Sequence record: OQ411014.1
DNA length: 64,000 nt
DNA from: Escherichia phage EJP2
Reading direction: 5' to 3' (one strand)
Notes under the pieces: generated by a model
Database searches by the model: none
What the model saw: only the letters and a program-made list of their open reading frames with translations
What the model was told of the DNA's origin: nothing
Made by a program: the position numbers and the translations under genes
In this document: positions 4,859 to 63,790 of the stretch, one piece after another
Numbering within the stretch: the stretch's first letter is position 1
Layout: each line of letters begins with the position of its first letter

Positions 4859-4879
4859 TAAAAAACTTTCGCAGTACTG

Positions 4880-4907
4880 TTGACAACCTCTCCAGTACTG
4901 CTATAAT
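4880..4907 (+). promoter_or_regulatory. sigma70-like promoter
   Basis: -35 TTGACA 4880-4885, 16-nt spacer, -10 TATAAT 4902-4907. Confidence 0.55.
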
Positions 4908-4943
4908 AAATGTACTTTCAAAACATATTAAGGAATTAAAATC

Positions 4944-6512: not shown

Positions 6513-6560
6513 CAGTACTATAATCTCTTTTATCAACTACACGGAATAGGAAACATCATC

Positions 6561-9372: not shown

Positions 9373-9858
9373 ATGAATAATGATTTGTCGTATATAGAAA
9401 CCTTAAACTTAGCCAATGACTTACTCTTAATTCTTAGGGCATTTGATGCGGGTAAGCTGGATGGTTATAAGGATATCACTAAGCAGCTTATAGGTGATAC
9501 TACAACGGAATACTTTCTTGCAGGTGAACGTGTATGTTACGTCACTAATAAAGCATCCAATATATGGTCAAACGTAAGTCTCACTTCTGGTCGGATTCGA
9601 TACAATCAATTATATCCTCACTACCCTATAAAGAACAACGGCGAGATTACTAAGTGCGTCCCTGGGGATAAAATCTTTGAAGTGTCCGAAGAACAATTTT
9701 TCTATAACACACTCACACTCGATACTAGCTTACCAACGAGTGCACTTATCTTTGGAGTACTGTCTGGACACAAGTTTGAACACAACGCTGTGGGATTATA
9801 CTTCGACCTAGAGTATGTGGATATACTGGTTCTGTATGCTAAAGAGGTGTTGGCATGA
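9373..9858 (+). CDS. FQ-motif paralog family protein
   Basis: Motif VSEEQFFYNTL; RBS GGAG. Confidence 0.7.
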   Translation: MNNDLSYIETLNLANDLLLILRAFDAGKLDGYKDITKQLIGDTTTEYFLAGERVCYVTNKASNIWSNVSLTSGRIRYNQLYPHYPIKNNGEITKCVPGDKIFEVSEEQFFYNTLTLDTSLPTSALIFGVLSGHKFEHNAVGLYFDLEYVDILVLYAKEVLA

Positions 9859-10358
9859 GACTACGAGTAGAAGATTACTCTTATGATGAAGTTCTAAAGT
9901 TAGCCCACGATATACGTTTGATGATGAGTGCCTTTGATACTGGTCGGCTAGATGGTTATAAAGATATTCGCAGAGAAGACGTTGATGAAAAGACTGTGGA
10001 GTACTATATTGGGAACGATAGGGTCGCACATCTAAACAGATATGAATCAACTCTATGGAGTATGCTTATGCAGAAACATGGAACTATCAAACATAACTCT
10101 TTCGCTGCACACACTATGTTTGTTATCGACGCTGTGGTTCATGAACGTAAGCTAGATGATCCCATGTTTACTGTTTCGGAAGAACAATTCTTTTACAACA
10201 CTTTACAATATCCCAACAACACTGTTCCCGCTAGAGGTATTATTTTTGGTGTACTGAATGAACATACGTTTGATTACAATGAAATTACATTGAAATTCAA
10301 ATTACACCTAGATAAGATGTTAGCTTACTCACAAGAGGTTATGCATAATGCAATGTAA
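9855..10358 (+). CDS. FQ-motif paralog family protein
   Basis: Motif TVSEEQFFYNTL; ATGA overlap with upstream stop. Confidence 0.7.
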   Translation: MRLRVEDYSYDEVLKLAHDIRLMMSAFDTGRLDGYKDIRREDVDEKTVEYYIGNDRVAHLNRYESTLWSMLMQKHGTIKHNSFAAHTMFVIDAVVHERKLDDPMFTVSEEQFFYNTLQYPNNTVPARGIIFGVLNEHTFDYNEITLKFKLHLDKMLAYSQEVMHNAM

Positions 10359-10680
10359 CGTTATTATAAACACGTATTGTGAATCATATACACATCTTGG
10401 TGTTATGCGTTTTTCTGAACCAATGACGAATTATCTTATTCGCTATAACCACCGCAAAAATGAATGGGAACTTCGATACTATAATCCAAAAACATTGGAT
10501 GTGGAACAGATTGATGATACTATTGCTGTACTGTTGGACATGACTGAAGAAGAACTGTTCCAACATTCGTGCATTACTGATTTCGATGTCTACATGGTTC
10601 ACGCTGGTATGCAAGAGTTGAAACATAACACTCCCACAAGCTATAATTCCGTAATAACTAAGAAAACATTGGAGTACTAA
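10348..10680 (+). CDS. FQ-motif paralog family protein (short, divergent)
   Basis: Motif TEEELFQHS; 11-nt overlap ATGCAATGTAA. Confidence 0.55.
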   Translation: MQCNVIINTYCESYTHLGVMRFSEPMTNYLIRYNHRKNEWELRYYNPKTLDVEQIDDTIAVLLDMTEEELFQHSCITDFDVYMVHAGMQELKHNTPTSYNSVITKKTLEY

Positions 10681-11180
10681 TGAACACATTTGAAGAAGAT
10701 TTACAATTTGCTAACAAGGTGTTACGAATCCGAAATGCTATGATTACTGGTGAATTAAAAACTCTTCCAGGAGTGCATGAGCAGACCAATCCATTTCTTA
10801 ATGAACTGGATTTTTTATTCTTTGGAAATGTTGATTTAAGATCAGCACCGCTTGGATGTTTGACTTTTGAAAAAGGCGTTTCACGTTCTATAATTTCTCA
10901 AAGACATATATCATATAACACCAACGATGATAAGATTGCAGTTTTCAATGATGACCTTGAGAAATACGTTGACGTTGATATTGTTGATTACGATGAAAGC
11001 CTTTACTTTCAACACAGCCTGTTGTATACTCCTTGTGACTTACGTTACTTGGTTACTGCTTCTGTACTGAAGGCAAATGAAATTCCAGATAGACCAAACA
11101 TCCATCGATTCAAGTTTCAGTTGGTGCACATTCCAACAATTCATAAACTCTTGAGGTATAGAGACTATGGCATCATTTGA
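10680..11180 (+). CDS. FQ-motif paralog family protein
   Basis: Motif DESLYFQHSLLY; TAATG overlap. Confidence 0.65.
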   Translation: MNTFEEDLQFANKVLRIRNAMITGELKTLPGVHEQTNPFLNELDFLFFGNVDLRSAPLGCLTFEKGVSRSIISQRHISYNTNDDKIAVFNDDLEKYVDVDIVDYDESLYFQHSLLYTPCDLRYLVTASVLKANEIPDRPNIHRFKFQLVHIPTIHKLLRYRDYGII

Positions 11181-11646
11181 AGAAGATTACGCAGAAGCAA
11201 AAGATATCTGTACTGTTATGAAAGCCTTAGACACCAATCTGTTTGACAACCATAAAGAGATTATGACATTTCATAATGAATTCGAAACGATATATCAATG
11301 TTGGAATACAAGGTTCGCAGCAGTAAGTAAACATACTATTGGATATAAAAATAGCATTGACATTACAGGTAAACTGATTGACTATAGACCACATTCAGAT
11401 TCGTTTCAATATTTCAATTATGAAGATATGAAAGGGTATCTACTAAAAAAACACGACGCTGTATTCACCCCGACTGAAGAACAATATTTTCAAAATTCTA
11501 TTCTGTACGATCCAATCAATGTGAGAAGGTTTCTCATTTACGGAATACTAAATCAAGAAACTTTTGAGAACGAATTTATTCACTTGGACTACAACGTACT
11601 GAATCGTCTTGTACATCTTGCTAACGAGGCTAGAAATGCAACGTAA
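11167..11646 (+). CDS. FQ-motif paralog family protein
   Basis: Motif TEEQYFQNSILYD. Confidence 0.7.
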   Translation: MASFEEDYAEAKDICTVMKALDTNLFDNHKEIMTFHNEFETIYQCWNTRFAAVSKHTIGYKNSIDITGKLIDYRPHSDSFQYFNYEDMKGYLLKKHDAVFTPTEEQYFQNSILYDPINVRRFLIYGILNQETFENEFIHLDYNVLNRLVHLANEARNAT

Positions 11647-12223
11647 TGAATACACTGAATATACTGAATATACCGAAGTAGATGATGCTATTGATGTACC
11701 AGAGTACTGTTATAGTGATGATTTAAAGTACTGCTATGATATACTCAAGATAAAACACAACATGGAAATCCAGAGTCTACTCAAATTAGATGCATTTGAA
11801 CTATCAAGAATACAACAAAAGTCTATACAGTACGTTATGAAAACAGCCTTCTATGAAGAGTCAGGTCATAAGATCGGTATTGGCTCAGTACATAAGAATC
11901 TAAGAGTAGAAATGAGTTCACATCTAAGTATAACTTACTGTGTATTCGATAGTAGAAGTACAGTCTTCTCAGTACGTGACTATAAAGGACGTTATCCTAT
12001 ATCAGATACAGTACTATCAGAAGAACAGTACTTTCAACTTAGTCTTATTCATGATCCTTATCTTCTAAGAGCAATGTTACTTTATTCTGTACTTAAAGCT
12101 AATTCTAATCTAGAATCATCATGTGAGTACTCTCAAATCAATTTAGCTTATAATAGTTCAGTACTGAAATATATTGATACCCTAGATACCCTAGATACTC
12201 TTGGGGCAGAAGAAACATTATAA
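11636..12223 (+). CDS. FQ-motif paralog family protein
   Basis: Motif SEEQYFQLSLIHD; ATG 11636 (11-nt overlap) preferred over listed 11609. Confidence 0.6.
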   Translation: MQRNEYTEYTEYTEVDDAIDVPEYCYSDDLKYCYDILKIKHNMEIQSLLKLDAFELSRIQQKSIQYVMKTAFYEESGHKIGIGSVHKNLRVEMSSHLSITYCVFDSRSTVFSVRDYKGRYPISDTVLSEEQYFQLSLIHDPYLLRAMLLYSVLKANSNLESSCEYSQINLAYNSSVLKYIDTLDTLDTLGAEETL

Positions 12224-12247
12224 TAACATTTATAACAATCATATAAC

Positions 12248-12814
12248 ATGGTGAGAAGTATGGTCATATCTACAGTAGATGCAAACAGATACAAGTTGGA
12301 GTCACTATTATTCGATGAAGTGAGTTACTCAAAGCACAAACGATTTTGTACTGCCATGTGTACAGTACTGAAGGTTATTGCTACAGGAGAGATAGAGAAG
12401 TACAAGGGTATTACTAAGACTAGGCATTTAGGAATGGGGTGTACATACTACTATAACGATTTTAACTTCTGTAGTGTTGATATGTTAACACCAGATGAAG
12501 AGGATTATTCTGTTGTGATGTTAGGTTCATGTAGGGTAGTACTGTTCAATGATTACAAGGATTTAATATCTGTAGATAACGATTATAAAGAGATTATCAT
12601 TCCTAGTACATCTAATTTACTGATACCTACAGAAGAGCAGTACTTCCAGAATTCATTACTCTATGACAGAGCGTATCATCTGTGTAAATTCTTATTATAT
12701 GGATCTATCTTGCAATTGAACTTACAGTACTGTAGTATAGACTTCAGATACAACCAAGTGTTTGAGCTTGAGGAACTAATACTCAAAGGTGATTATAGTG
12801 AACAATATCAATGA
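12248..12814 (+). CDS. FQ-motif paralog family protein
   Basis: Motif TEEQYFQNSLLYD. Confidence 0.7.
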   Translation: MVRSMVISTVDANRYKLESLLFDEVSYSKHKRFCTAMCTVLKVIATGEIEKYKGITKTRHLGMGCTYYYNDFNFCSVDMLTPDEEDYSVVMLGSCRVVLFNDYKDLISVDNDYKEIIIPSTSNLLIPTEEQYFQNSLLYDRAYHLCKFLLYGSILQLNLQYCSIDFRYNQVFELEELILKGDYSEQYQ

Positions 12815-13349
12815 TAATGAATCATATACTGAAGCTACACAATTAGTACAAGATGTGTTATTAGTAGTACAGTATCTTATGAATTCAGAGTTCAAGGATA
12901 GTGCATTGAAACACACTATCAATGAAAGGAGTTTCTCATCAAGAATGACATCATTTGTATTTGATGTGAATAGAGGATTGGGTCGTACTGTTTACGAGAA
13001 GACTGTTGCTACGTTAAGGTCAGCAGTAGGGGGGACCAATGAGTTGAGGATTACTGCTAACGCTATTCAGTACTGTACAAGTTCTAATACTGTATGTGTA
13101 TATAAAGATGAAGATTCAAGATATCAAAAGTACAGTCCTATTGATTTTGATGATTATTCAGAAGAGAGATATTTTCAGACCTTATTGATGTACGATGAAG
13201 TTTATGCTAAGAACATGCTTGTAGCTTCTGCGATACAGAAGTACATTCCAGAGATCATGCGTTCACGTAATTATAAGGAGTTAACACTTACTGTGTTCCT
13301 TGATGATTTGCTTGAATTAGCTAATATTATAAAGGAAACACAACAATGA
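12789..13349 (+). CDS. FQ-motif paralog family protein
   Basis: Motif SEERYFQTLLMYD; GTG start, exact start uncertain. Confidence 0.55.
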   Translation: MIIVNNINDNESYTEATQLVQDVLLVVQYLMNSEFKDSALKHTINERSFSSRMTSFVFDVNRGLGRTVYEKTVATLRSAVGGTNELRITANAIQYCTSSNTVCVYKDEDSRYQKYSPIDFDDYSEERYFQTLLMYDEVYAKNMLVASAIQKYIPEIMRSRNYKELTLTVFLDDLLELANIIKETQQ

Positions 13350-13936
13350 CGTATCGCTCATTAGCAGCTAAAGCCGAGCATGAATTATATCTAATGCAAA
13401 AGATGAAGAATCTCTTATACAAGTACGAAAACAACGAAGACATTTCTTCTTATCATTCAGTACAGCTTAGTAAGCATTTTAGTATTTTATATTTCAAGGA
13501 CGATGTTGGTATTTTGTCATTGTGTCACCTTCCTAGTGGTTCATTTAATACGGACACAACAACGCTTATACAAGTTTATTCACATTACAGTGATATAGAA
13601 AATATTAGCTCACCGAGAATCCTTGAGTCCTATTACAATCAATCATCGAGTAATATGGTCAGGAATGTGTATAATGATTTCTTGCGGTTTAGACCTTCAA
13701 TTGATGATGATGAGTTACGGGTTATCATTCCTACAGTACAGCAAATGGATTTGAGTACAGAAGAGGGGGAGTTTCAGTTCATTACGGCGAACGACGATTC
13801 AGTACTTGACGTTATGAAATATTTGCAGTACATTACAAGGAATAAGTTCGATAGAACATTCACAACGAGCTTTAGTGATTTAGTACCTGAAGCGATTGCA
13901 GCATGGGATGAGTATTATGAGCGATTTCAGTCCTGA
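13346..13936 (+). CDS. FQ-motif paralog family protein
   Basis: Motif LSTEEGEFQF; ATGA overlap. Confidence 0.65.
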   Translation: MTYRSLAAKAEHELYLMQKMKNLLYKYENNEDISSYHSVQLSKHFSILYFKDDVGILSLCHLPSGSFNTDTTTLIQVYSHYSDIENISSPRILESYYNQSSSNMVRNVYNDFLRFRPSIDDDELRVIIPTVQQMDLSTEEGEFQFITANDDSVLDVMKYLQYITRNKFDRTFTTSFSDLVPEAIAAWDEYYERFQS

Positions 13937-13968
13937 GATTATTCAAGCAGCTAAGGATATTGAGAGTT

Positions 13969-14535
13969 ATGAGCGACGATTTAGTACAGAAGATTAGTTC
14001 CACAGTTCATGTATTGAAGTTTATGCATAATTTACAAACACAGCTAATACAGGACAATATCATTCCTGGTATTTTTTCATTAGAATTGAATAAAGAATTC
14101 AAGATAACATATGTAGATTATGATAAGTCATGTACATTGAAATTAATGTACGCACCATCAGTGCATTCTGCGTTTGCTAATCAGCAACTTGATGTTGTTG
14201 TGTTAACAATATCGAAATCAGACACATCCCCAGAGTCATCTTATTCACCGCAGCATTACCTCATTTCGAATAAAGATACACAAAGAATCAAGACCACAGC
14301 ATACAAGAATGCACAGGAATGGATACCAATTATTCCTAAGAGCGAGCTTGATTTGAGTACAGAAGAGGCAGATTTTCAGTACAGGATGATTTACGACGAT
14401 GTAGTACTTGATATGTTGAAATTCGTTCAGGCAGTTCAAGATGAAGTGTACGTAGATTTTTGTACATTTTTATCTCCAGTAATATACAGAGCACATGAGG
14501 CAATTGTACGATATGAAAATAAAATTAGAATTTGA
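13969..14535 (+). CDS. FQ-motif paralog family protein
   Basis: Motif LSTEEADFQY; ATG 13969 preferred over TTG 13960. Confidence 0.6.
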   Translation: MSDDLVQKISSTVHVLKFMHNLQTQLIQDNIIPGIFSLELNKEFKITYVDYDKSCTLKLMYAPSVHSAFANQQLDVVVLTISKSDTSPESSYSPQHYLISNKDTQRIKTTAYKNAQEWIPIIPKSELDLSTEEADFQYRMIYDDVVLDMLKFVQAVQDEVYVDFCTFLSPVIYRAHEAIVRYENKIRI

Positions 14536-16654: not shown

Positions 16655-16810
16655 TGTAATGTTATAATATAACATATATTGGCTTTTATTATGTAGTCCT
16701 GAGATCGGGGGATAGGGGTCAAAAAATTTTCCGCTCCGCAAAGTATATTAATAAGGTATAATACGCGGGGCGGCGGTGGCGGCGGCGAGATTGCGATTAG
16801 GGTGGATTTT

Positions 16811-17179
16811 ATGTTAGATCATGATTTTCGGTTGCACACACATATAGTCCAGGGTGTATATCATTTTTATTGTAACGTACATAAAGGTGATACCAGTCAT
16901 AGAAGGCACGTATATATTTCTTATCTTAATGGTGCGTTTTCGTTCATTAGTTATGAGAATTATAAGTACGGTTCTCGGACAGATCATCCTATGCAGGATT
17001 ATACAGTACTGGATGAGGGTGGGAGATTTCAGGCAGAATTAGTGCTTGATGCAAATTCTGTTCTTACATTAGATGAGATTATTTTCATTCAGAATCTAAT
17101 GAAAGAGTTCTCGGTGCGTGCACAAAATTCTGAAGAATTTGAACACGATTACTATTTCAATATAGGAATTCCATCATGA
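16811..17179 (+). CDS. FQ-motif paralog, 120-aa subfamily copy 1
   Basis: Motif EGGRFQAELV; ATG 16811 preferred over GTG 16802; GC-rich leader upstream. Confidence 0.6.
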   Translation: MLDHDFRLHTHIVQGVYHFYCNVHKGDTSHRRHVYISYLNGAFSFISYENYKYGSRTDHPMQDYTVLDEGGRFQAELVLDANSVLTLDEIIFIQNLMKEFSVRAQNSEEFEHDYYFNIGIPS

Positions 17180-17535
17180 CATATGATTTTTTCTTACATG
17201 CTTACAAAGGAAAAGGTATCTATCAGTACTATTGCAATGTCAATAAAAATGACATAAAATATAATCTGAACGAATTCATCTTTTACGTACAAGGTGTGTT
17301 TAAGTTTGTGGACTACAGTAAGGATATTCAACATGATAGAAGTGATATGTTAGATTATTCAGTACTGAATGAAGCTGAACTCTTCCAAGCAGAAGTAGCT
17401 TATAATTTGGAGTACATTCTTCCATTGCACGAAATTGCTGCTATCCAGAGAACAATAAAAGAGTTTGCCAGTACTGTAAATGTATCAGATGACACTAAAA
17501 AAGAGTACTATTTCAATATAGGAATTCCATCATGA
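17176..17535 (+). CDS. FQ-motif paralog, 120-aa subfamily copy 2
   Basis: Motif EAELFQAEVAYN; N-terminus MTYDFFLHA; ATGA overlap. Confidence 0.7.
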   Translation: MTYDFFLHAYKGKGIYQYYCNVNKNDIKYNLNEFIFYVQGVFKFVDYSKDIQHDRSDMLDYSVLNEAELFQAEVAYNLEYILPLHEIAAIQRTIKEFASTVNVSDDTKKEYYFNIGIPS

Positions 17536-17888
17536 CATATGATTTTTTCTTACACGCTCATAAACACAAAGGTTTTTATCAGTACTATTGTAATGTTCAT
17601 AAAAATGATACCATGCACAGTATGGACCATTATATCAATTACTCAGAAGGGAAGTTTCAATTTCTGGACTACGGTATTGTATCTAAACCATATCGTGATA
17701 TGATAGATTATTCAGTACTGACAGAGGCTGAACTATTCCAAGCAGAAGTAGCTTATAACAGTGAGTACATTCTTACGTTGGATGAAGTTGTTGCTATCCA
17801 GACTATAATGAAAGAATATGTCCAGAATGTACCTGATCCAGCGGAAACAAATGATCAGTACTTTTTCAATATAGGGAATCCAGAATGA
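17532..17888 (+). CDS. FQ-motif paralog, 120-aa subfamily copy 3
   Basis: Motif EAELFQAEVAYN; junction DNA identical to previous copy. Confidence 0.7.
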   Translation: MTYDFFLHAHKHKGFYQYYCNVHKNDTMHSMDHYINYSEGKFQFLDYGIVSKPYRDMIDYSVLTEAELFQAEVAYNSEYILTLDEVVAIQTIMKEYVQNVPDPAETNDQYFFNIGNPE

Positions 17889-18253
17889 CAGAGAATAGTT
17901 TTGATTTTTCATTGTTCGTATCAGTGTATGAAGAAATATATTGCAATCTCATCAAAGGTGATATTGAGCATAACAAGTCAACATTCATCAAGTACAAAAA
18001 ATCTACATCTACATCTGCATTTACATTTAGATTTGTAGATTACGATAATAATCAAAGAATGCAACCTATACAGGATTATACAGTACTGAATGAGGCTGAA
18101 AGATTTCAGGCAGCGTTGGTATATGAAGAAAAGTATCTCGTTACTATGGATGAAATGATTGCTATCCAACAAGAAATAAAAAATCACGTAAAAGAGTACG
18201 GTATGAGTTCAGTACTGGGTAAGAGATTACATTTCAATATAGATAAGGAATAA
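17885..18253 (+). CDS. FQ-motif paralog, 120-aa subfamily copy 4
   Basis: Motif EAERFQAALVY. Confidence 0.7.
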   Translation: MTENSFDFSLFVSVYEEIYCNLIKGDIEHNKSTFIKYKKSTSTSAFTFRFVDYDNNQRMQPIQDYTVLNEAERFQAALVYEEKYLVTMDEMIAIQQEIKNHVKEYGMSSVLGKRLHFNIDKE

Positions 18254-27065: not shown

Positions 27066-27094
27066 TTGACAAGCATTGTATCTTCGGGTACAAT
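27066..27094 (+). promoter_or_regulatory. sigma70-like promoter with palindromic spacer (operator-like)
   Basis: -35 TTGACA, 17 nt, -10 TACAAT; perfect inverted repeat AAGCATTGTA..TACAATGCTT. Confidence 0.55.
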
Positions 27095-27117
27095 GCTTTT
27101 TTTATAGGAGAAATACT

Positions 27118-27756
27118 ATGATTTCGTATGAGTTTTTTGTAGGTGTTTCGAAGATTACTACTGAACTTCTAAATGTATATCGATACATGTTCGATAATAA
27201 TGATACGTTATTGTTTCAGGATTTTGACGCTGAGGATCATGATTCAGGATTTGTATTGGAGTTCTATCCACGACGCATATGCTTCTCGGATATTGTTGAA
27301 AGTTATAATACCTTACTGTCTATAACTCCATCAGAAAGTGCCCACGCGATATACAAAGGAACTATGTCCGATGAAAGGTCCATAATTACAGTTTCTGATG
27401 CAAGGTCGTGTGATTTTATACATTTATCCCACTACAGTGCTCTTACAAAAATCAATAAGAATACGCCTATTCCTTCTTTCAGTACTCCAAGTACAGCAGA
27501 AGAATTTGAGCAGACAGCGTTTCAGTTGATGATGTTATACGAAGAAGATGTAGTTGATTTATTTTTACTGAACAGTTATGTTGGGCCATTACTTGAAGGT
27601 ACTTCTATGAAATTCTTCAGTGCTACTAAGTTGTACTACCTTAGTCCAGTGGACTTGAATAACATGCTAGTGTTACTCCAAGAGCAATTCAAGAAAATAC
27701 TCCAATATAAAGAGGCGAAGAATGATTACTTACGACAAGTGCAAAGCTATCAGTGA
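27118..27756 (+). CDS. FQ-motif paralog, MISYEKC subfamily copy 1
   Basis: Motif EQTAFQLMMLYEED; ATG 27118 preferred over TTG 27076 which lies in the promoter. Confidence 0.65.
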   Translation: MISYEFFVGVSKITTELLNVYRYMFDNNDTLLFQDFDAEDHDSGFVLEFYPRRICFSDIVESYNTLLSITPSESAHAIYKGTMSDERSIITVSDARSCDFIHLSHYSALTKINKNTPIPSFSTPSTAEEFEQTAFQLMMLYEEDVVDLFLLNSYVGPLLEGTSMKFFSATKLYYLSPVDLNNMLVLLQEQFKKILQYKEAKNDYLRQVQSYQ

Positions 27757-28330
27757 ATTGTTTACAGTACTACTGGATGTGAAGAAGTACTTATTACAAA
27801 ATAACATATACATACTTCGGTCTAAGTATGATATTGAACATAAAGATTTCAGGATTGAATTCTTTTCATCTGGAAACTGTGAACTATTTCGAACATACCC
27901 AGTGTATACTAGACTTTGTACTATTGGAATGTGCACATCACTGCGGAGTGTTTTTAAAGAACCCAAAGAAAAAGAAGGGTATTTGTGTACATTTTCCGAT
28001 CATAGTGTGTTTATGCACAAAGATGAATTCGTTACAAGAACAGGTTATGATAATGTTTTTCAACCTTTATGGGTAAATGATTGCAAACACAATCAAGATG
28101 AAGTAGAGAGTGCTTTGTTCCAGATCAGTACTGTGTACAATGAAGAAGATGCGGATTTAGTAATATTGTATAACTTCATTCGCAATGCATTAGAAGGTTC
28201 TCGTTTGCGTTTATCGTTTACAGATCTTTTACTTGAGTGTACGATTTGTGAGGTTCATGTGTTGACTGAACTAACTAAAAGTCGATTTCAGAAAATCCAA
28301 GAAGATTATCCAGTAGGTGAATGTAAATGA
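27722..28330 (+). CDS. FQ-motif paralog, MISYEKC subfamily copy 2
   Basis: N-terminus MITYDKCKAIS; motif ESALFQISTVYNEED. Confidence 0.65.
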   Translation: MITYDKCKAISELFTVLLDVKKYLLQNNIYILRSKYDIEHKDFRIEFFSSGNCELFRTYPVYTRLCTIGMCTSLRSVFKEPKEKEGYLCTFSDHSVFMHKDEFVTRTGYDNVFQPLWVNDCKHNQDEVESALFQISTVYNEEDADLVILYNFIRNALEGSRLRLSFTDLLLECTICEVHVLTELTKSRFQKIQEDYPVGECK

Positions 28331-28926
28331 TTTCATATGAAAAATGTCAAGCTATTTCGAATTTAGTAGTTGAACTTGTAGCTACTAAGGATGCAATAAT
28401 GAATCGTAAATTTACAACTTCTCGTTACAGAGCATCTTTTGAGATTTTCAATGATGATATTAGAATTGAATTTTCTATAGCGGGGAATTGCGATATATAT
28501 CAAACATCCCAATCAACAGATCGATTGTGTTCAATAATGTCAGATCAATGCATGTTTAGTTTGTTCGAGAGAGAGTCCGTGTTAGTAGGTTCGAATACTT
28601 ATCAATTTTATGATCATAAAAATGCAGTGCATGACTATTACTGTAAATCATTCTCACTCAATCACATCAAACATCCAATATGGATAGGTGAGTGCACTGC
28701 TGATAATTATGATAGTGTTGTTTTTCAATTGAGTACTGTGTATAATGAAGATATGGCTGGTCTTATGTTATTGAATAATTTCATTCGACCAATTCTTGAG
28801 GGTACTGGTTTTAAATTTACCGCACATAGTTTGTTATTGCAGTTACCTGTTGAAACCATCGAGTGTGCTACTTTGTTATTACAGAAACAACATCAAAAAA
28901 TCTCCAGACAAGGTGAATGTAAATGA
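28327..28926 (+). CDS. FQ-motif paralog, MISYEKC subfamily copy 3
   Basis: N-terminus MISYEKCQAIS; motif DSVVFQLSTVYNED; ATGA overlap. Confidence 0.7.
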   Translation: MISYEKCQAISNLVVELVATKDAIMNRKFTTSRYRASFEIFNDDIRIEFSIAGNCDIYQTSQSTDRLCSIMSDQCMFSLFERESVLVGSNTYQFYDHKNAVHDYYCKSFSLNHIKHPIWIGECTADNYDSVVFQLSTVYNEDMAGLMLLNNFIRPILEGTGFKFTAHSLLLQLPVETIECATLLLQKQHQKISRQGECK

Positions 28927-29528
28927 TTTCATATGAGAAATGTTTAGTACTGAAAGAGTTAGCAACTACACTAATTGAGACATACCATTACATAGCCAAT
29001 AACCCACGTATCTCAGTTGGAATACTGGACGGCGAATACGACACTATGCGTAATGGATACATGGCGGTATTTTATCCGAAAGGAAACTGTTATATATATG
29101 ACAGTACTGATATATATCAGAAACCACTAATGAGTGTTCGTAAATGGCAATTGGGTATGTACACTCTATGTAAGACATTACATGACGGTTACATTACGTG
29201 TAATTTCTCAGATAATTTACTCGCTGAAGTTGATAATTATTTTACAAACACTCACGGTGCAAAAGTTACACACAATTTACCATCGATTTTGAAGTACTGT
29301 AACGCTAGTGAAGACGCTTTCAATAGTACTGTTTTTCAATTGAGTACTCTTTACGACGATGAAGACATTGAAACACTTTTGATATACTCTTTCTTGCGAG
29401 ACATGTTAGAAGGTTCTGGTATGTCCATCACAATATCATCTACAACACTAGAAGATTCAGTAGAGAAAATTATTGATGGCCTTGAATTGTTGAAATGTCA
29501 ATTAGAAAAAATGAAAAAATCAATTTGA
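28923..29528 (+). CDS. FQ-motif paralog, MISYEKC subfamily copy 4
   Basis: N-terminus MISYEKCLVLK; motif NSTVFQLSTLYDDED. Confidence 0.7.
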   Translation: MISYEKCLVLKELATTLIETYHYIANNPRISVGILDGEYDTMRNGYMAVFYPKGNCYIYDSTDIYQKPLMSVRKWQLGMYTLCKTLHDGYITCNFSDNLLAEVDNYFTNTHGAKVTHNLPSILKYCNASEDAFNSTVFQLSTLYDDEDIETLLIYSFLRDMLEGSGMSITISSTTLEDSVEKIIDGLELLKCQLEKMKKSI

Positions 29529-35068: not shown

Positions 35069-35866
35069 ATGAGAATCAAAGATATCAAAGATTACTCTCA
35101 TGCGACGAGAGCAGAAATCATCAGTATAGCCAAAAGCATACATCCACAATTACTGAACATCATCCAGTACCGAAGCCTTCAGGACGAATCCCTGTGTGAT
35201 AATCGTCTTACTGATATGTTCAATGAACAATTGCGTTCTAAAATCGATGCATATAAAATGCAGATGAAAGCAATGCGTACTCAGTACTTAGTAGAGTTCT
35301 TCGAGGATTATCTTCTTCTCGATGAAGGTTCTCCGTACGAGCACGACATGTACTATGGAATCGATTTGAACACAGGTAAGAAGCTCTCTAAGGCTTCGGA
35401 CTTCACTAACCCTACGTACGATGTGATTTATGTTCCAGAGGTTCAGAACGTCGTTGAGTGCGTTAATGCTATGCATACGTCTCATACTGACATTCGTCCG
35501 TTCTGGAATAAGAATTCATACACGATGTACAGTACTACAGAGCAGCATCACATCTATCCGTGCAAGAACGCAGAAGAGTTCATCAAGAGTGCACGTAAAC
35601 AATTCAGTACTTTACCTCATGAAAATGCTATCATGGATTTAGTTAGTACTGCTGCTAAGGTTCGGGACTTTGATTACCCACTACACTTCGCTGCGTTATC
35701 GTCTGGTGATGAGCGTTCGGTATATAGCAGTACTGTAATGAAATCCATTCAACGTCATCAAATCTTACGTGACTTCTTAGAAAGTGTTTACAGTCCTGAT
35801 GAAGTGTACTATACTAGTTCAGTTACAGAAGATGGGACATACAAGTTCTTTCCAAGCAATTACTAA
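35069..35866 (+). CDS. hypothetical protein (265 aa)
   Basis: ORF track; RBS AAGGAGAAG. Confidence 0.65.
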   Translation: MRIKDIKDYSHATRAEIISIAKSIHPQLLNIIQYRSLQDESLCDNRLTDMFNEQLRSKIDAYKMQMKAMRTQYLVEFFEDYLLLDEGSPYEHDMYYGIDLNTGKKLSKASDFTNPTYDVIYVPEVQNVVECVNAMHTSHTDIRPFWNKNSYTMYSTTEQHHIYPCKNAEEFIKSARKQFSTLPHENAIMDLVSTAAKVRDFDYPLHFAALSSGDERSVYSSTVMKSIQRHQILRDFLESVYSPDEVYYTSSVTEDGTYKFFPSNY

Positions 35867-35878
35867 CGAGGATATATA

Positions 35879-36736
35879 ATGCGTTTGAGATTGGTTATTT
35901 CCAGTGCAGATGATCAGTTGTGGGTTAGGCCAGCGGACAGTACTAGACGTGTTCGTCTACCATCAGTTCATGGTCATACCTTTATTGTTGAGAACAAACA
36001 ATCAACATTAGAAGAAGCCTTTCGTCTATTCATTGGTGATTATGAATGTAAGCCATTCAATGACTATCATTGCACTTATGAAGTTGTTGATATTCCTGAT
36101 GAGTACATGTTCCAGTTGGCACTATTAGGCGTTCATGAGATGGACTTCCTTGTGTACAATAACGTCACTAAGAAAATGGCAATTTGTTCAGCAGTACATT
36201 TGGCTGTTGAATATACAATGGCAACTAATTCCAAGGTAGGTTATAACCAATCTTCTTATCGTAATAGTACTGCTACTACTAACGATGTTGTATTCCAGTG
36301 GGAGTACAAAAGTGACGAGTGGAAGACTAAGAACGATGATGTTACTGTTCATACAGTACTGGATAGTACTTATGATAATATCTATCAGTACATTGAGCCT
36401 AACCTAATGGAATGGGCTTGTAGGATGTACAGTAACATTGCTGATACTTTACGTCCTAGAGTTTATGGGTTCAAGAACTGGAAAAGTAAGATTGATACAT
36501 CTGATGAACCAGTAGCGTATGAAAAGTCCTACCCGTACTATAACTTCAGTGATTTATATTTCCTGTTCAATCAGTACTGCAACGATGAAGCGATGTTTTT
36601 GTACGCACAGGATGTAATCTCCGATTCAGCAATTGAGATATTGCGTGAACTGTACTGTCATTGTCAGTTTATCAGTACTAACATTCAGGTCGGCAAGGAT
36701 TACATAAAATTCTGTGATGAAAGAAGATCACGATAA
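35879..36736 (+). CDS. FQ-motif-like hypothetical protein (285 aa)
   Basis: Motif DEYMFQLALLGVHE; RBS GAGGAT. Confidence 0.6.
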   Translation: MRLRLVISSADDQLWVRPADSTRRVRLPSVHGHTFIVENKQSTLEEAFRLFIGDYECKPFNDYHCTYEVVDIPDEYMFQLALLGVHEMDFLVYNNVTKKMAICSAVHLAVEYTMATNSKVGYNQSSYRNSTATTNDVVFQWEYKSDEWKTKNDDVTVHTVLDSTYDNIYQYIEPNLMEWACRMYSNIADTLRPRVYGFKNWKSKIDTSDEPVAYEKSYPYYNFSDLYFLFNQYCNDEAMFLYAQDVISDSAIEILRELYCHCQFISTNIQVGKDYIKFCDERRSR

Positions 36737-37476
36737 TTTGAGCATTCATAAAAAAATGTGATATAATTAGTACTACGGATGGTTAGCTATCCGTATTTTA
36801 AATTTGAATGACCAGTACTACATACTGGTACGTTTTAACCCTGATTCACTCGAAAATGTAGAGGACAGTTGAGTACGCATTCAAGTACGTTCAGCAGAAG
36901 AAACCCGTTAGGTGTAGGCATAGTTTGTACCTCCCACGGCAATGTGGCTGATTAAACCATGAAGAGTAATACGATGACTCATGGCTTGCTTATGGCATGA
37001 TAGACATATAAGGATCGCTCCTTACCAAAATGTATAAGGGAATCTTATAAATTTTTGTAGGACTGATTAGAGGCTTACCCTTGATCCGTCCAAAATTTGA
37101 AGATACAGTACAGTACTGTTTATGTGGTAATGTATTGATGCGTGCTAAGACCACGACCGTTGCATAGAAACGCGATAGGAAGAAACAGGGCAACCCGCTT
37201 CCGTTCTTAATAGAAATTCGTAACATAAAATGATGACACATACCAGCGTCAAACTTTGTTCTTCCCTCCCTGTGGGGGGATGAAAATGAATCTACAAAAC
37301 CTCGTCAAATAATAATAAGAAAGTACTAAATCAATTAGAACGAACGCTAGTGAGTGATAATTGATTTAGTAACAGTAACGCTTCGCTAGAAGTGTTACTC
37401 GTTGTTTAAGAATAAAATAACTTAGTGAGTTTTGGTTCTTTTGTTGTTCACTAAGTCCCTATAGAGAGAATATTAG

Positions 37477-37998
37477 ATGCCAGTGAAATATAAATCCCTT
37501 GATGGTGTTGTGAAGTACAAAGATCAAATGACTGAACAGGAATTACAAGAGTTCAGTGGGTACAAAATCGAGGGCAGTGCGGCACGTATTTCATACATTG
37601 AAGAGTACAAAGACGGAGATTTACTAGGGAAAATTATCCTTAGAATGACAAAAGCCCCAATCATATTTCGGGTAGTATACAAGGGATATAATGAAATTCG
37701 GTACAATACTGGAAGTGTTTCATCTAGATATTGCAGTAATGGTGATGTTTTTTGTGGTGAAATGCTGAGATATGATATGAATGGGAAGCTACAGGTTCGG
37801 GACTTTTTGAATCTAGGCAAGAACGTAACTGATGATATTGTTACTGAATTTGGTATCTCTGATATACTACAGCATGAATTTACAGAAGAAGAGTTATTCC
37901 GACTCTATATGAAATACGATTCAGGATTTAGATTCGTATCGGAATATAATAGAACTCCTGAACACTTCGATTCAGTACTGAAGGCGTGTTTGGAATAA
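37477..37998 (+). CDS. FQ-motif-like hypothetical protein (173 aa)
   Basis: Motif TEEELFRLYMKYD; RBS AGAGAGAAT. Confidence 0.6.
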   Translation: MPVKYKSLDGVVKYKDQMTEQELQEFSGYKIEGSAARISYIEEYKDGDLLGKIILRMTKAPIIFRVVYKGYNEIRYNTGSVSSRYCSNGDVFCGEMLRYDMNGKLQVRDFLNLGKNVTDDIVTEFGISDILQHEFTEEELFRLYMKYDSGFRFVSEYNRTPEHFDSVLKACLE

Positions 37999-38013
37999 TA
38001 GGATATACAATTC

Positions 38014-38532
38014 ATGGATGATAAAAAATCAAAGATGGATATACACTTTTCATCTAAAGCTCAAACTTGGAATACTCCAAGAGATTTATGGAATAAAATA
38101 AATGCAGTATGGAAGTTCACTCTAGATGCTGCGTGTTTAGAAAATAGTGCCTTGTGCGAAAAGTACTTCACTCCTGAAGACGATTCATTAGAACAGGACT
38201 GGGGTGATAACATAGTATGGCTTAACCCACCCTATAACGACCTCAAGACTTGGCTATCGAAGGCAGTACAGGAATATAAGAAAGGCTCTACAGTTGTCAT
38301 TCTGGTCCCTTCTAGGACGGATACAAAGGCATTCCAGGACTATGCTTCTAAAGAATGTTCGTGTATTTGTTTTATTAAGGGAAGACTCAAGTTCTTTGAT
38401 CCAGCTAGACCACCTGATGCGAGGGCAGACCCAGCACCATTCCCTAGCTGTTTGATAGTACTGGATGATGATCTTACACAAGAGAAAATCGATTTTCTAA
38501 AAACTCTAGGTCAGGTAATGAAGAATGTCTAA
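38014..38532 (+). CDS. dam: DNA N6-adenine methyltransferase, small phage Dam family
   Basis: Catalytic NPPY in WLNPPYNDL; N-terminal HFSS..WNTP and C-terminal PFPS motifs typical of the ~170-aa phage Dam family. Confidence 0.8.
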   Translation: MDDKKSKMDIHFSSKAQTWNTPRDLWNKINAVWKFTLDAACLENSALCEKYFTPEDDSLEQDWGDNIVWLNPPYNDLKTWLSKAVQEYKKGSTVVILVPSRTDTKAFQDYASKECSCICFIKGRLKFFDPARPPDARADPAPFPSCLIVLDDDLTQEKIDFLKTLGQVMKNV

Positions 38533-39064
38533 ACGCTGTGTCTTTATGTTCGGCAGAATGAACCCGTGCCACCTCGGACACGGGAAAGTATTTGAAAAAG
38601 CACTACAACTAAAGGATAATGAAACTGATGTGAAGTTGTTCCTTAGTGCTTCGTTTGATCCTAAAAAGAATCCACTACCAAGAGAAGTTCGTCAGTACTA
38701 CATATCTGAGTTCTTCCCTGAAATAAAAGATTCTATACAAGATACAAACATAAACAATTTATTTGATATAATGAAATCACTTGATACTTATTATAGTGAT
38801 GTAATATTCGTAGGTGGTTCAGACAGGGCGAGTTCCTTCCAAGAACTACTACTGAAGTACAATAACAAACAGTACTCATTCGATTCTATCAGTACTGTAC
38901 TAGCTGGAACATCAAGAGAAGAATCTATGTTCAGTTCTACTCTAATGCGTAATGCAGTACAGAAGGACGATTTCAGTACTTTCAAGATATGTCTCCCTGG
39001 GGATAATGAATACTTGAAGTACGATATGTTCGCTGGTGTAAAGAAGTACATGAAAAATATTTGA
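38525..39064 (+). CDS. nucleotidyltransferase with HxGH motif (cytidylyltransferase-like superfamily)
   Basis: N-terminal FGRMNPCHLGHGKVF (HxGH signature); substrate not assignable. Confidence 0.55.
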   Translation: MSKRCVFMFGRMNPCHLGHGKVFEKALQLKDNETDVKLFLSASFDPKKNPLPREVRQYYISEFFPEIKDSIQDTNINNLFDIMKSLDTYYSDVIFVGGSDRASSFQELLLKYNNKQYSFDSISTVLAGTSREESMFSSTLMRNAVQKDDFSTFKICLPGDNEYLKYDMFAGVKKYMKNI

Positions 39065-39123
39065 CACCTATCTATAGCCATGATACTATATGTACATGGC
39101 TATTTCTATATGAAGGTACTATA

Positions 39124-39678
39124 ATGAAAGCAAAAGATCTGTTTGATATGGTTCACTCCAATCGTAAGCACCAATTGAATATTAATAGATCATTCAAGTT
39201 TGGTCACATGGATGTTACATATATAAAGTCATTTGGTTCTGATTTATTCTTGGTTGAGCTTGCTCAAGCTGGTAAATCTAAACGAGTATGTGAAATAATC
39301 TATTGTCCTCTCGAAGAAGAAAATGATACTTATGTTCCAGTTAAAGTATTTGATACTAAAGTCAAATTATCCAAGACTGAAATTGAGTTTGGTTTTCCGG
39401 TGGATGAAAAATTGAAGGATACAATTCGGTTTGTTCCGACTGATTTCAAAACTCCAGCATTTGATATAGACTTCAGTACTGAAGAATCGGCTTCACAAGC
39501 TATGTTCATTCATGATTTCGACCCCAAGAACTGTGAGTACCTAATGGCGGCTACACGTGCATTACAAGAAGTGTACCACCAGCCTGGATATGGGTACATG
39601 ATTATTTCGAGTACTTCTCCGGCATTACTGTGTGATGTACTAGGGATTGAAGTCCAAGTAGGAGTATACAATGCGTGA
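39124..39678 (+). CDS. FQ-motif paralog, VHDFD subfamily
   Basis: Motif SASQAMFIHDFD; ATG 39124 preferred over TTG 39061. Confidence 0.55.
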   Translation: MKAKDLFDMVHSNRKHQLNINRSFKFGHMDVTYIKSFGSDLFLVELAQAGKSKRVCEIIYCPLEEENDTYVPVKVFDTKVKLSKTEIEFGFPVDEKLKDTIRFVPTDFKTPAFDIDFSTEESASQAMFIHDFDPKNCEYLMAATRALQEVYHQPGYGYMIISSTSPALLCDVLGIEVQVGVYNA

Positions 39679-40222
39679 TAAAGTTCAACACATATTGAAT
39701 TGTATGCAGAAGAAAGTTCACGTTCAGAATGATGTACTTGATATGCAAGTATATACAATTCTATCTTCAGAAGATGGCGTGTTTAGTTCAACTATTCGAT
39801 GCCGCAATAAAAATAGCGGTTCCTTTACTATTATGCTAAGGAAGAAGACTGAAATGATTACTGCTCCTAGTTCAGTACTGGGACAAAACGACACATACAA
39901 TACAGTTTACACTTCTCTTGCAATGAAGATGGCAATCTTCTGTACGCATGGTAATCCCCTACACATTGTTCGTGGGGATAGTACAATAGGTGATGATGTC
40001 GTTCAGGATTTGAGTGACGAAGGTTTCTTTCGCTTGTTATTGGCAGTTGACCCGAAGTATAATATCGATATAGATGGGTACAAGCAGGTTCTTGAAATGA
40101 TTTATGCATTCGAAGAAGTAGTACCTGAAGATTGGACTATTGTTATTAGCTCACCATTAGATAATTTACATTCAATAGATGTTGATTCTATCTATTCAGT
40201 ACTGAAGGATGTCGTAGTATGA
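39671..40222 (+). CDS. FQ-motif paralog, VHDFD subfamily
   Basis: Motif DEGFFRLLLAVD. Confidence 0.6.
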   Translation: MRDKVQHILNCMQKKVHVQNDVLDMQVYTILSSEDGVFSSTIRCRNKNSGSFTIMLRKKTEMITAPSSVLGQNDTYNTVYTSLAMKMAIFCTHGNPLHIVRGDSTIGDDVVQDLSDEGFFRLLLAVDPKYNIDIDGYKQVLEMIYAFEEVVPEDWTIVISSPLDNLHSIDVDSIYSVLKDVVV

Positions 40223-40788
40223 ATGCCGCAGAGTTTGTTAGAGCACTTGTTGGTTTAGCTAAAGTGAAAACTTATAGAGGAAATATCACTAAATCAAATT
40301 CGCATTTTGTTCCACGTAATGGTCGTGAACATCTATTCGTTGATTCATTACTCATCAAGGGTATCGATGCATATGAAGAAATATACATTTCTATAGATAT
40401 GTGTGATGGATTCTTGAATTCCATTGCAGTTCATACAAGAAATAGATATACTCATTTCTCTATGTACAGAAAAACGGCATACACAGAGTATGATAAGTAC
40501 GCAATGGAAGAAACCTCCCCAGGGCGTTTCCTTATGCTTTTTCACAATGAAATTACCGAGCGTGATTTAATCATGAATCACAAGGGTGAATTTATTGTGC
40601 ACATGGACAATGAAAGTGAAGTGTTCAGTACTTTATTAGTACATAACTTCGATATAGAAAAGTACAGAGAAATTCATGAAACCTATAAGTGCATTGATGA
40701 ACTTAAAACTGACCTCTCATTCAGTACATATGATACTAATTGTGGTCTGAATTTCGCAGCACTATATCAAATTATATGGAAGGCATAA
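40219..40788 (+). CDS. FQ-motif paralog, VHDFD subfamily
   Basis: Motif ESEVFSTLLVHNFD; ATGA overlap. Confidence 0.65.
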   Translation: MNAAEFVRALVGLAKVKTYRGNITKSNSHFVPRNGREHLFVDSLLIKGIDAYEEIYISIDMCDGFLNSIAVHTRNRYTHFSMYRKTAYTEYDKYAMEETSPGRFLMLFHNEITERDLIMNHKGEFIVHMDNESEVFSTLLVHNFDIEKYREIHETYKCIDELKTDLSFSTYDTNCGLNFAALYQIIWKA

Positions 40789-41309
40789 TGACTGCACTAA
40801 ATGATTTCATGACTCTCAGTACTGAAATAGTATCTTCTACAAAGGGAGAAATCACAATCCCCCGTGATGATGTATATATTATACTAACACCAGGAATAGC
40901 AGAGTCCATAAAAGTATACGAAAATAATGATTCTTTACAAGTACTGTACATGCCACAAGATTATCTTTTTGTAAATTCTGATTTTACTTTACATCAATTT
41001 CCTACGTATAGTAATTTTCAACAACGTTTCCCAAGTGATAAAACAAAAGAAATAAAATACGTACAGTACGATAATAGTTTTAAAAGTCGTACTCATTTTA
41101 TCGCTTTAGAAACTGAAGAAGATATATTCAATGCTATGATAGTACATTCATTTGATATAAACGCAGCACTAGAATTGATGAGTGTATTGACTGAAGTACC
41201 GGAAGATGTAACAGGTATTATTACTATAAGAACTAAGTACAATGAAGAATTGTTACTAAAGTGCAACAGTATGATGCGAGATTATATTAGTAATAAGGAA
41301 AACACATGA
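40788..41309 (+). CDS. FQ-motif paralog, VHDFD subfamily
   Basis: Motif EEDIFNAMIVHSFD; ATG 40788 (TAATG overlap) preferred over TTG 40740. Confidence 0.6.
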   Translation: MTALNDFMTLSTEIVSSTKGEITIPRDDVYIILTPGIAESIKVYENNDSLQVLYMPQDYLFVNSDFTLHQFPTYSNFQQRFPSDKTKEIKYVQYDNSFKSRTHFIALETEEDIFNAMIVHSFDINAALELMSVLTEVPEDVTGIITIRTKYNEELLLKCNSMMRDYISNKENT

Positions 41310-41836
41310 CAGTACTGAATGATTTTCTTAGAGATAGTAAGTACATTATTGATAATATTGCTGAAGAAATATCTATACCATCAATGGATGAGTTGATGAT
41401 GATATCAATGGACCCTGATGGTGGGTTGGTAAAAGTATATTACGATTTTGAACTGCACGTAATGTTCATGAAAAATCATTATGAACACGCTTCTGATATG
41501 TTGACACTTTATGATTTTGGGACGCATAAAAATTACCAACAACGTTTACCAGCAAACAAATCAAAGGATATGAAACTAAGTGTTTACAATTCTGCTGGTG
41601 TTACTATTCCGACTAAGATTTCTCTTGGTTCTGAAGAGGGAATCTTTTCTGCGGAATTAGTACATGATTCCAGTACTGAAGAAGCACTTGAAGTTATGCA
41701 AGTAATTTCTGAAGTACCTGACAGTACCAAAGGAATACTTACTATAAGAAATAAGTACAACGAACGATTACTTATAAAATGTAATGTGTTATTAGAACAA
41801 TATATACATGGAGTACTGAATGCAAATATGGTATAA
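41306..41836 (+). CDS. FQ-motif paralog, VHDFD subfamily
   Basis: Motif EEGIFSAELVHDS; ATGA overlap. Confidence 0.65.
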   Translation: MTVLNDFLRDSKYIIDNIAEEISIPSMDELMMISMDPDGGLVKVYYDFELHVMFMKNHYEHASDMLTLYDFGTHKNYQQRLPANKSKDMKLSVYNSAGVTIPTKISLGSEEGIFSAELVHDSSTEEALEVMQVISEVPDSTKGILTIRNKYNERLLIKCNVLLEQYIHGVLNANMV

Positions 41837-62716: not shown

Positions 62717-63790
62717 ATGAAAAACGAAAACGTATATGTATACATCGGACGCTTCCAGCCAGCACATAAAGGCCACGAAGCAGTACTTGAAAATGCAATC
62801 AAAAAAGCTGACCGTGTTGTTATTCTAGTGGGTAGTGCTGAACAAGCTCGTTCCCCTAAGAACCCGTTCACCTTTGAAGAACGCCAAAAAGTACTGGACG
62901 GTATCACAACTCGTCTTGCACAAGATGAATGGGCGAAAGGTCGCCGTGTGATGATCGACATCCTACCTGTACATGACTTCGTATACAACAACCAGAAATG
63001 GCTCATGGAAGTTCAAGAACAAGTTCGTTCCTGCACTAAAAGTGAAAACATTACTCTAACTGGTTGTCGTAAACATGGCGATGATAGTACTTTCTATCTT
63101 GAGTTCTTCCCTCAGTGGAATCAAGATTTCATTACAGAAACTACACAAGAAGATGTTGGTATCAATGCCACTCAACTACGTAACCAATTCTTCAGTACTA
63201 AACAAGTACCTGAACAAAATGTACTTACTCCTGAAACTGTAGAGTTCCTTGAGAAGTTCAGCGTAGAAAAGAAAGATGTACTAGATTACCTAGTGAAAGA
63301 ACATGCTTTTACTACAAAATATAAAGCAGACATGAAGAAACAACTACCATTTGACACAATCCCATTCCTGACTGGTGATAGTCTGATTGTCTGTGCAGGT
63401 CATGTTCTTGTAGGTATTCGTCGCTCTGAACCAGGCAAAGGTCAGTACTGTCTACCTGGTGGGTTCTTCGATGCATGGAAAGATAAAGATCAAGTTGATA
63501 CTGCTTTACGTGAACTCAAAGAAGAAACCAAAATTGATGTACCAATGAATAAACTACGCGGTTCTATTGAACGTGTAGAAGAGTTTGGTGACTTTGACCG
63601 TGACCCACGCTGGCGTGTAATCACTAAGTGCATCTACATCAAACTTGACGGTACTAAACTACCTAAAGTAAAAGGCTCAGATGATCTCAAAGGTTGCTTC
63701 TGGATGCCTATGACTGAAATTGCTAAAAATCGTGCTAACTTCTTTGTTGATCACGTTTCCATCATTGACACGTTCTTAGGAATCCTGTAA
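62717..63790 (+). CDS. natV: bifunctional NMN adenylyltransferase / Nudix hydrolase (NadM-Nudix type)
   Basis: N-terminal HxGH motif in IGRFQPAHKGHEAV; C-terminal Nudix-box-like GGFFDAW..ALRELKEETKI; 357 aa; symbol by analogy with vibriophage KVP40 NatV. Confidence 0.8.
   Translation: MKNENVYVYIGRFQPAHKGHEAVLENAIKKADRVVILVGSAEQARSPKNPFTFEERQKVLDGITTRLAQDEWAKGRRVMIDILPVHDFVYNNQKWLMEVQEQVRSCTKSENITLTGCRKHGDDSTFYLEFFPQWNQDFITETTQEDVGINATQLRNQFFSTKQVPEQNVLTPETVEFLEKFSVEKKDVLDYLVKEHAFTTKYKADMKKQLPFDTIPFLTGDSLIVCAGHVLVGIRRSEPGKGQYCLPGGFFDAWKDKDQVDTALRELKEETKIDVPMNKLRGSIERVEEFGDFDRDPRWRVITKCIYIKLDGTKLPKVKGSDDLKGCFWMPMTEIAKNRANFFVDHVSIIDTFLGIL

Follow-up and report, generated by a model that had tools for sequence, protein, structure and literature searches.

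The stretch analysed here, 64,000 nucleotides (nt) of the genome of Escherichia phage EJP2 (OQ411014.1; hereafter the window), carries at positions 37477–39064 three co-directional open reading frames that fill this interval on the plus strand. The first, p173 (37477–37998; 173 amino acids (aa)), belongs to phrog_16210 and is followed by an N6-adenine methyltransferase of the phage Dam family PF05869 (38014–38532; 172 aa, NPPY at residues 71–74), hereafter the methylase, and by a nucleotidyltransferase with HxGH and SSTxxR motifs of the phage 'cytitidyltransferase' family phrog_3041/395 (38525–39064; 179 aa). With the ATG of the latter at 38525 and the TAA of the methylase at 38530–38532, the two genes overlap by 8 nt (38525–38532, plus strand; ATGTCTAA). 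An initial annotation made from the letters of the window was confirmed in its gene calls, in both motifs (NPPY and HxGH) and in the overlap; the latter would reflect the compact, translationally coupled gene packing of phages more readily than a joint pathway. EJP2 is a Rak2-like (group 2.2) jumbo phage, the methylase is 100% identical to the EJP2 protein annotated as 'DNA modification methyltransferase', and the EJP2 genome paper mentions neither the methylase nor the nucleotidyltransferase gene.

The initial annotation had regarded the gene pair as an unusual island that interrupts a paralog array. The trio is, however, found in the same order in every Rak2-like jumbo phage sampled, and both proteins are encoded next to each other, as determined by tblastn, in Munch, 7t3, SE_PL, PHA46, fENko-Kae01 and Hallingskeid as well as in about 30 PBECO4/121Q-like coliphages, with 'DNA N-6-adenine-methyltransferase' and 'cytitidyltransferase' or 'nucleotidyltransferase' as the annotations in the relatives. 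In Munch, Hallingskeid, 121Q, GAP32, the RaK2-like RCIP0023 and CBB, an unannotated gap of ~600–740 nt precedes the p173 ortholog, the methylase and the nucleotidyltransferase, and the order of a structured RNA gene (described below), p173, methylase and nucleotidyltransferase is invariant across 20 fetched loci, which represent 121Q/PBECO4-like, Munch-like, Hallingskeid, GAP32, CBB and RaK2-like genomes together with IMG/VR contigs. Munch and Hallingskeid have an 8-nt overlap of stop and start codon, 121Q and RCIP0023 one of 4 nt, while GAP32 and CBB possess a gap (3 nt and 21 nt respectively) and no overlap. The p173 orthologs, with 30–41% identity, are always located directly upstream of the methylase; p173 matches phrog_16210 (E 7e-36; function unknown), profile scans assigned it to no Pfam or NCBIfam family, and a faint MORN-like repeat was seen in one of 15 members of the p173 family. 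The trio is thus a vertically inherited, lineage-conserved ordinary cassette and not a recently acquired island, and the pair of methylase and nucleotidyltransferase is already known, as it is annotated across dozens of jumbo-phage genomes. Nor does the pair interrupt a paralog array. Tandem arrays of small paralogous genes detectable by BLASTP and phmmer are located elsewhere in the window, at 9373–13349 (seven members), 13346–14535 (two), 16802–18253 (four), 27076–29528 (four) and 40219–41836 (three); the genes directly upstream of the locus (35069–36736) are unrelated by the same programs. Paralogy near the locus is restricted to the downstream array at 40219–41836, and in no case does an array extend to either side of the methylase.

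The product of 172 aa represents a minimal form of the PF05869 'phage Dam' methyltransferases, in which the S-adenosylmethionine (SAM)/NPPY catalytic core is intact. It matches the Pfam Dam profile with 100.1 bits (cutoff 28.1; E 1.4e-28), it possesses both the catalytic (D/N)PPY and the F-x-L-D SAM-site motif of the family, and the residues F35, D38, N71, P73 and Y74 do not vary among 30 homologs, with P72 almost as constant. T1 Dam, a small GATC-specific DNA methylase, is a PF05869 member as well (E 1.7e-70) and shows 32% identity to the EJP2 protein over 109 aa of the catalytic half (E 3e-17). With T1 Dam and the HP1/VT2 Dam group (PF05869, TIGR01712) the methylase shares the family, the motif order W-x-T-P ... 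F-x-L-D ... NPPY and the architecture of a small orphan phage enzyme without a separate target-recognition domain; on the other hand, it falls 65 aa short of T1 Dam in length and is divergent in the C-terminal half (FIKGRLKF ... SAPFPS). The AF2 model (pLDDT 85.4) consists of a bare catalytic domain with no extra domain, for which the top PDB matches in Foldseek are all PCIF1/CAPAM (E 7e-6, TMq 0.69), the cap-specific RNA N6,2'-O-dimethyladenosine (m6Am) methyltransferase with an NPPF/NPPY-type catalytic loop. Sequence identity to PCIF1/CAPAM amounts to 12–14%, and the methylase lacks the accessory cap-binding helical and WW domains, being 172 aa in size compared with ~490 aa in the crystallised PCIF1/CAPAM constructs. 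A PDB sequence search with the methylase returned no matches, and because no PF05869 structure is present among the PDB matches, the resemblance of the model to PCIF1 may describe the whole PF05869 family and does not necessarily point to an RNA substrate.

The 179-aa protein combines both catalytic motifs of the HIGH-signature superfamily with a confidently predicted NMNAT/PPAT-like Rossmann fold. It matches PF01467 CTP_transf_like with 26.7 bits (cutoff 21; E 7e-6) and phrog_3041 'cytidyltransferase' with E 4e-48, and scores 26.6 against TIGR00125 (cutoff 27.7). H16-L-G-H19 is located at residues 16–19, the second superfamily motif SSTLMR, which had escaped the initial annotation, at 136–142, and no member of the family alignment departs from H16, G18, H19, S137 or R142, so that the profile, HxGH, the ISSTxxR-type motif and the Rossmann-like fold of the superfamily (PF01467) are all present. 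The AF2 model has a pLDDT of 89.7; its best Foldseek matches, spanning TM 0.56–0.69, are the nicotinamide mononucleotide (NMN) adenylyltransferase (NMNAT) domain of NadM (E 1.8e-6), phosphopantetheine adenylyltransferase (PPAT; 8.5e-6) and archaeal NMNAT (TM 0.65–0.69). Cytidylyltransferases (CCT) are weaker, near E 1e-2 with TMq ~0.45–0.48, behind NMNAT and PPAT; the protein is consequently not closest to the cytidylyltransferases proper (TagD/CCT) that the GenBank annotations suggest. PPAT is also its best PDB sequence match, although marginal (E 0.002), in both single-protein and family-profile searches. The Rossmann-like HIGH-nucleotidyltransferase fold and the HxGH and ISSTxxR-type motifs are shared with NadM, archaeal NMNAT and bacterial PPAT (CoaD), but identity to these enzymes is 14–18%, and the scores stay far below the curated cutoffs, with 16.9, 15.5, 14.5 and 12.9 bits against NMNAT (NadM/NadR/archaeal) cutoffs of 397, 341, 127 and 181 and 19.2 bits against 103.3 for CoaD (TIGR01510).

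The family to which the nucleotidyltransferase belongs is restricted to phages, with ~560 phage records, mostly of T4-like cyanophages, and ~2000 protein clusters, most of which have no Pfam match. The cyanophage 'cytitidyltransferases' (phrog_3041/phrog_395) show 33–36% identity to the EJP2 protein and all catalytic motifs are invariant; they are, however, 290–385 aa long with N- and C-terminal extensions that the 179-aa protein lacks. In contrast to the arrangement in EJP2, the homolog of S-RIM12, which was the single cyanophage locus inspected, is not adjacent to a methylase, and no gene for salvage of nicotinamide adenine dinucleotide (NAD) is located beside it. In the literature the function of the cyanophage 'cytitidyltransferase' is called 'unclear', and literature searches for 'cytitidyltransferase' recovered no description.

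Taken together, we consider it somewhat more probable than the opposite that the locus is an ordinary cassette which encodes a GATC-specific Dam methylase and an independent metabolic nucleotidyltransferase. GATC is probably the best-fitting target, as T1 Dam is a homolog, whereby the assignment is indirect. The closest relative, the Erwinia phage Hallingskeid, encodes the syntenic ortholog of the methylase (CDS_0623, 72% identity), and a comparison of its native and amplified DNA by Nanopore sequencing detected modification only at GATC (N6-methyladenine) and CCWGG (5-methylcytosine), two methylases being predicted for this phage, CDS_0623 among them (PMC11780129); in the group, an N6A methylase is typically accompanied by a single C5 methylase (PMC7247149). 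On phage DNA, the EJP2 enzyme would methylate the adenine N6 in GATC, and the rapidly replicating phage DNA would thereby be kept in a fully methylated state, protected from those GATC-cutting restriction enzymes that Dam methylation blocks. An anti-restriction function, which the initial annotation had attributed to such orphan phage Dam-family methyltransferases, is plausible. The nucleotidyltransferase would move adenosine monophosphate from adenosine triphosphate to a small phosphorylated metabolite and so generate a dinucleotide-type cofactor; this metabolite is probably other than NMN, for which EJP2 encodes a separate NAD-salvage enzyme of the NadM type (described below).

Several observations weigh against this assignment of both enzymes. 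The Hallingskeid authors noted that the host methylases Dam and Dcm could explain the GATC and CCWGG marks (PMC11780129), and in the window GATC occurs at 0.49 of expectation, which is not expected if GATC is fully protected. The methylase scores below the equivalog cutoff of TIGR01712 phage_N6A_met (84.8 versus 97.05 bits), its best structural match is the RNA cap methyltransferase PCIF1 with EcoDam ranked 27th in Foldseek, and its ortholog in CBB has been singled out as a possible RNA methylase: AMM43637.1, an accession confirmed to be CBB_72, was chosen to exemplify a set of small, Dam-like enzymes which 'might be RNA adenine methylases', and the likeness to PCIF1/CAPAM was noted (Iyer et al., 2021). 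The nucleotidyltransferase, on its part, reaches none of the NCBIfam equivalog cutoffs, and its substrate is indicated neither by the cyanophage neighbourhood nor by the fusion search, a profile search of 5.8 billion proteins which found no informative domain fusion. Finally, a virion proteome has been found to include one cyanophage homolog, an odd location for a metabolic enzyme.

Whether the methylase modifies the over-represented motif AGTACT, contained in CAGTACTG, had been raised by the initial annotation, and we consider this very improbable. The over-representation as such is real, with 301 sites in the window compared with 23.6 expected (~13-fold; reached by none of 100 shuffles), it is 9- to 16-fold in the 8.5-kb loci of the methylase-carrying relatives Munch, Hallingskeid, 121Q and GAP32, and the motif includes adenines. 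Hallingskeid, with 44 sites in its 8.5-kb locus (~16-fold enriched) and the syntenic methylase ortholog, nevertheless shows GATC and CCWGG modification only, although the method was able to detect a novel motif, TGCAT, in the related phage Kaldavass (PMC11780129). Methylation confined to another motif such as GATC, the outcome named beforehand as speaking against AGTACT, is therefore what the Hallingskeid methylome displays by proxy. A 172-aa enzyme without target-recognition domain is, moreover, unlikely to read a palindrome of 6–8 base pairs, and the joint occurrence of methylase and enrichment has no discriminating power, as both are found in every member of the clade. The caveat concerning host Dam and Dcm leaves room for a non-DNA substrate, but none for AGTACT.

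Alternatives to the GATC cassette have also to be weighed for the nucleotidyltransferase and for the locus as a whole. That the 179-aa enzyme is a second NMN/nicotinic acid mononucleotide adenylyltransferase, which boosts NAD+ resynthesis in infection, for example against NAD-depleting defences, is unlikely, even though the top Foldseek matches are NadM and archaeal NMNAT domains, phrog_3462 NMNAT is weakly matched (E 0.003) and the GRMNPxHxGH form of the motif resembles that of archaeal and NadM NMNATs. A full NadM-type bifunctional NMN adenylyltransferase/Nudix protein is already encoded in the window (62717–63790, plus strand; NCBIfam NF003786, E 3.8e-79), the NMNAT equivalog scores are tiny, as given above (12.9–16.9 bits against cutoffs of 127–397), the nearest solved protein by sequence is PPAT, and the homolog in the cyanophage locus has no adjoining NAD-salvage gene. 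The initial annotation had named an inactive protein or a plain NMNAT duplicate as outcomes that would refute its reading; with the separate NadM protein showing marginal similarity to the 179-aa enzyme (phmmer E 4e-4), the latter is neither inactive-looking nor a plain NMNAT duplicate. Among the relatives, CBB is reported to encode NMNAT, NAMPT and PnuC genes (PMC5259590).

Distinctly unlikely is also the main rival of the GATC reading, an RNA-modification module, in which the methylase would be an RNA adenine-N6 methyltransferase, cap-adjacent or internal, that acts on phage transcripts or on the upstream structured RNA, while the nucleotidyltransferase supplies or attaches a dinucleotide-type 5' group. 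The latter role is conceivable because NAD, flavin adenine dinucleotide and dephospho-coenzyme A are all products of the nucleotidyltransferase superfamily. The PCIF1/CAPAM matches rank far ahead of DNA methylases in Foldseek, the structured RNA gene is located directly upstream in every genome, Hallingskeid has no modified DNA motif beyond the host-attributable ones, and an RNA role has been proposed for the CBB ortholog (Iyer et al., 2021). Against these points stand the clear homology to T1 Dam, a GATC DNA methylase of the same Pfam family, the possibility that the PCIF1 match fits the whole family, given that PDB matches include no PF05869 structure, and the lack of the additional cap-binding domains of PCIF1 (172 versus ~490 aa). 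The RNA family, furthermore, is present in prophages and at three to four additional loci of each jumbo genome where methylase and nucleotidyltransferase are missing, its members are stand-alone genes and no leaders, and in the cyanophage S-RIM12 the nucleotidyltransferase is accompanied by neither methylase nor RNA at the locus; evidence for RNA as a substrate of the methylase was not found in this analysis. Lower still is the probability we give to the entire arrangement of RNA, p173, PCIF1-like minimal methylase and NMNAT/PPAT-like enzyme being a phage RNA-modification unit, which would place N6-methyladenosine at the 5' termini of phage transcripts or in the adjacent RNA and make or attach a dinucleotide-type 5' group.

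Although not the likely target of the methylase, AGTACT is a conspicuous feature of the window, with examples at 224–240, 602–618, 4873–4899 and 37112–37117, and the longer CAGTACTG occurs 107 times compared with 0.7 expected. The sites are found in all three codon phases and are denser between genes (7.4 per kb compared with 4.4 per kb), which rules out a codon or dipeptide cause of the excess. Since no modification at AGTACT is reported in the Hallingskeid methylome, the motif probably serves for protein binding or as some other signal at the level of the DNA; literature searches on AGTACT in phages found no description. In a repeated motif, AAAAAGTACTTGCATAGTACTGAAAAAAGCGTA, two AGTACT sites are placed exactly 11 nt apart (window positions 224, 602, 1914, 7142, 7926 and 8347), and AGTACT brackets sigma-70-like promoters at 4873–4910 and 6488–6530. 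Such AGTACT-flanked promoters or AAAAAGTACTTGCATAGTACTGAAAAAAGCGTA possibly represent a phage-specific promoter or operator. The window, on the other side, shows extreme selective avoidance of palindromes. GCGC is absent (0 versus 75 expected), as is AAGCTT (0 versus 21.6), CTTAAG occurs once (21.6 expected), TTAA reaches 0.27 of the expected number and, of the 64 palindromic hexamers, 26 are missing, whereas GTAC, TGCA, GAATTC and CCWGG are not depleted.

The structured RNA gene upstream of the trio occupies the plus-strand region 36738–37405 with a size of ~470–560 nt. A strong sigma-70-type promoter with extended -10 element (TTGAGC-18-TGATATAAT; 36738–36767) precedes the conserved core of ~470 nt (36838–37307), recognized by DNA conservation and covariation, and a terminator-like hairpin (37374–37399) follows it. 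Other phages, and a copy from Serratia, likewise have TGnTATAAT in front of the RNA. In megablast searches of 36500–40500 against phages, DNA-level conservation was confined to this region, with 77–88% identity, apart from 53 nt that match XaC1. On the plus strand of the region there is no open reading frame of more than 35 aa and a tRNA scan found no tRNA; Rfam 15 gave no match at the gathering threshold and only noise at E up to 10 or up to 1 for the window, the phage loci and the bacterial loci. RNAalifold on 31 distinct sequences predicts 67 pairs in 16 helices, some of them long-range. In this alignment, 97.7% of the cells are paired compared with 36–45% in slid controls, compensatory double changes are seen in 38 pairs compared with 14–18, and none of 500 shuffles reaches any of the observed pairing measures; the frequent G-U pairs identify the plus strand as the structured one. 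A likeness by eye to conserved regions of RNase P RNA or to the R/S elements of group I introns was rejected, as the segments are not collinear and Infernal gave no match at E 10.

By blastn, the RNA is found at 266 places in 70 jumbo-phage records, with four to five copies per genome and one in the window, and a pattern scan of IMG/VR recovered 39 loci, mostly on contigs of ~350 kb; homologs are present in the loci L001–L045, L047 and L049–L056 of our collection. The other copies in phage genomes reside in different, separately conserved contexts. On IMG/VR contigs, one paralog lies, as judged by sequence reading, ~560–620 nt downstream of a gene for a Rad50/gp46-like ATPase, and another has a conserved upstream neighbour of ~165 aa which reads as NADAR-like (L015, L024) and a conserved downstream neighbour of ~310–350 aa which reads as ADP-ribosylglycohydrolase-like (L015, L024, L032, L038, L045). 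The core pattern also matches eight bacterial contigs, where the RNA belongs to prophage-like integrated elements of enterobacteria, and the chromosome of Serratia fonticola contains it in full length with a TGGTATAAT promoter of its own. A serine or tyrosine recombinase is encoded beside the RNA in all four bacterial loci examined (Serratia fonticola, Enterobacter chinensis, Buttiauxella and Enterobacteriaceae RIT714), with a CI-like repressor gene in addition in two of the four. The bacterial copies are stand-alone genes, convergent with the neighbouring gene in both loci where this is readable, and this arrangement in prophages led to the rejection of the RNA as leader or riboswitch of the trio. 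Because the RNA also occurs without methylase and nucleotidyltransferase, conserved synteny is the best reading of its position next to the trio. The RNA is a candidate for a new family of large, structured RNAs from enterobacterial phages. It resembles the large ornate RNAs of the GOLLD/ROOL type in being large, multi-helical, stand-alone, phage- or prophage-borne and supported by strong covariation, but differs in that it matches no Rfam model, including those of these families, that its hosts are Enterobacterales and that it is found at four to five places per jumbo-phage genome. Literature searches on large non-coding RNAs of jumbo phages found no description of it.

For the biology of these phages, the gene pair itself carries little weight, as it is widely annotated and the methylase most likely duplicates the host Dam specificity. 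Nevertheless, it includes a member of a phage 'cytitidyltransferase' family of ~2000 clusters, near-universal in T4-like cyanophages, and the small Dam clade of the methylase is the one proposed to methylate RNA. If the RNA-modification unit outlined above were true, bacterial viruses would have in it a counterpart of cap-adjacent m6Am. The main leads adjoin the pair. One is the clade-wide, in the window 13-fold, enrichment of AGTACT, where the published methylome suggests no methylation site (PMC11780129); the other is the apparently undescribed structured RNA, which is common to lytic jumbo phages and temperate enterobacterial prophages.

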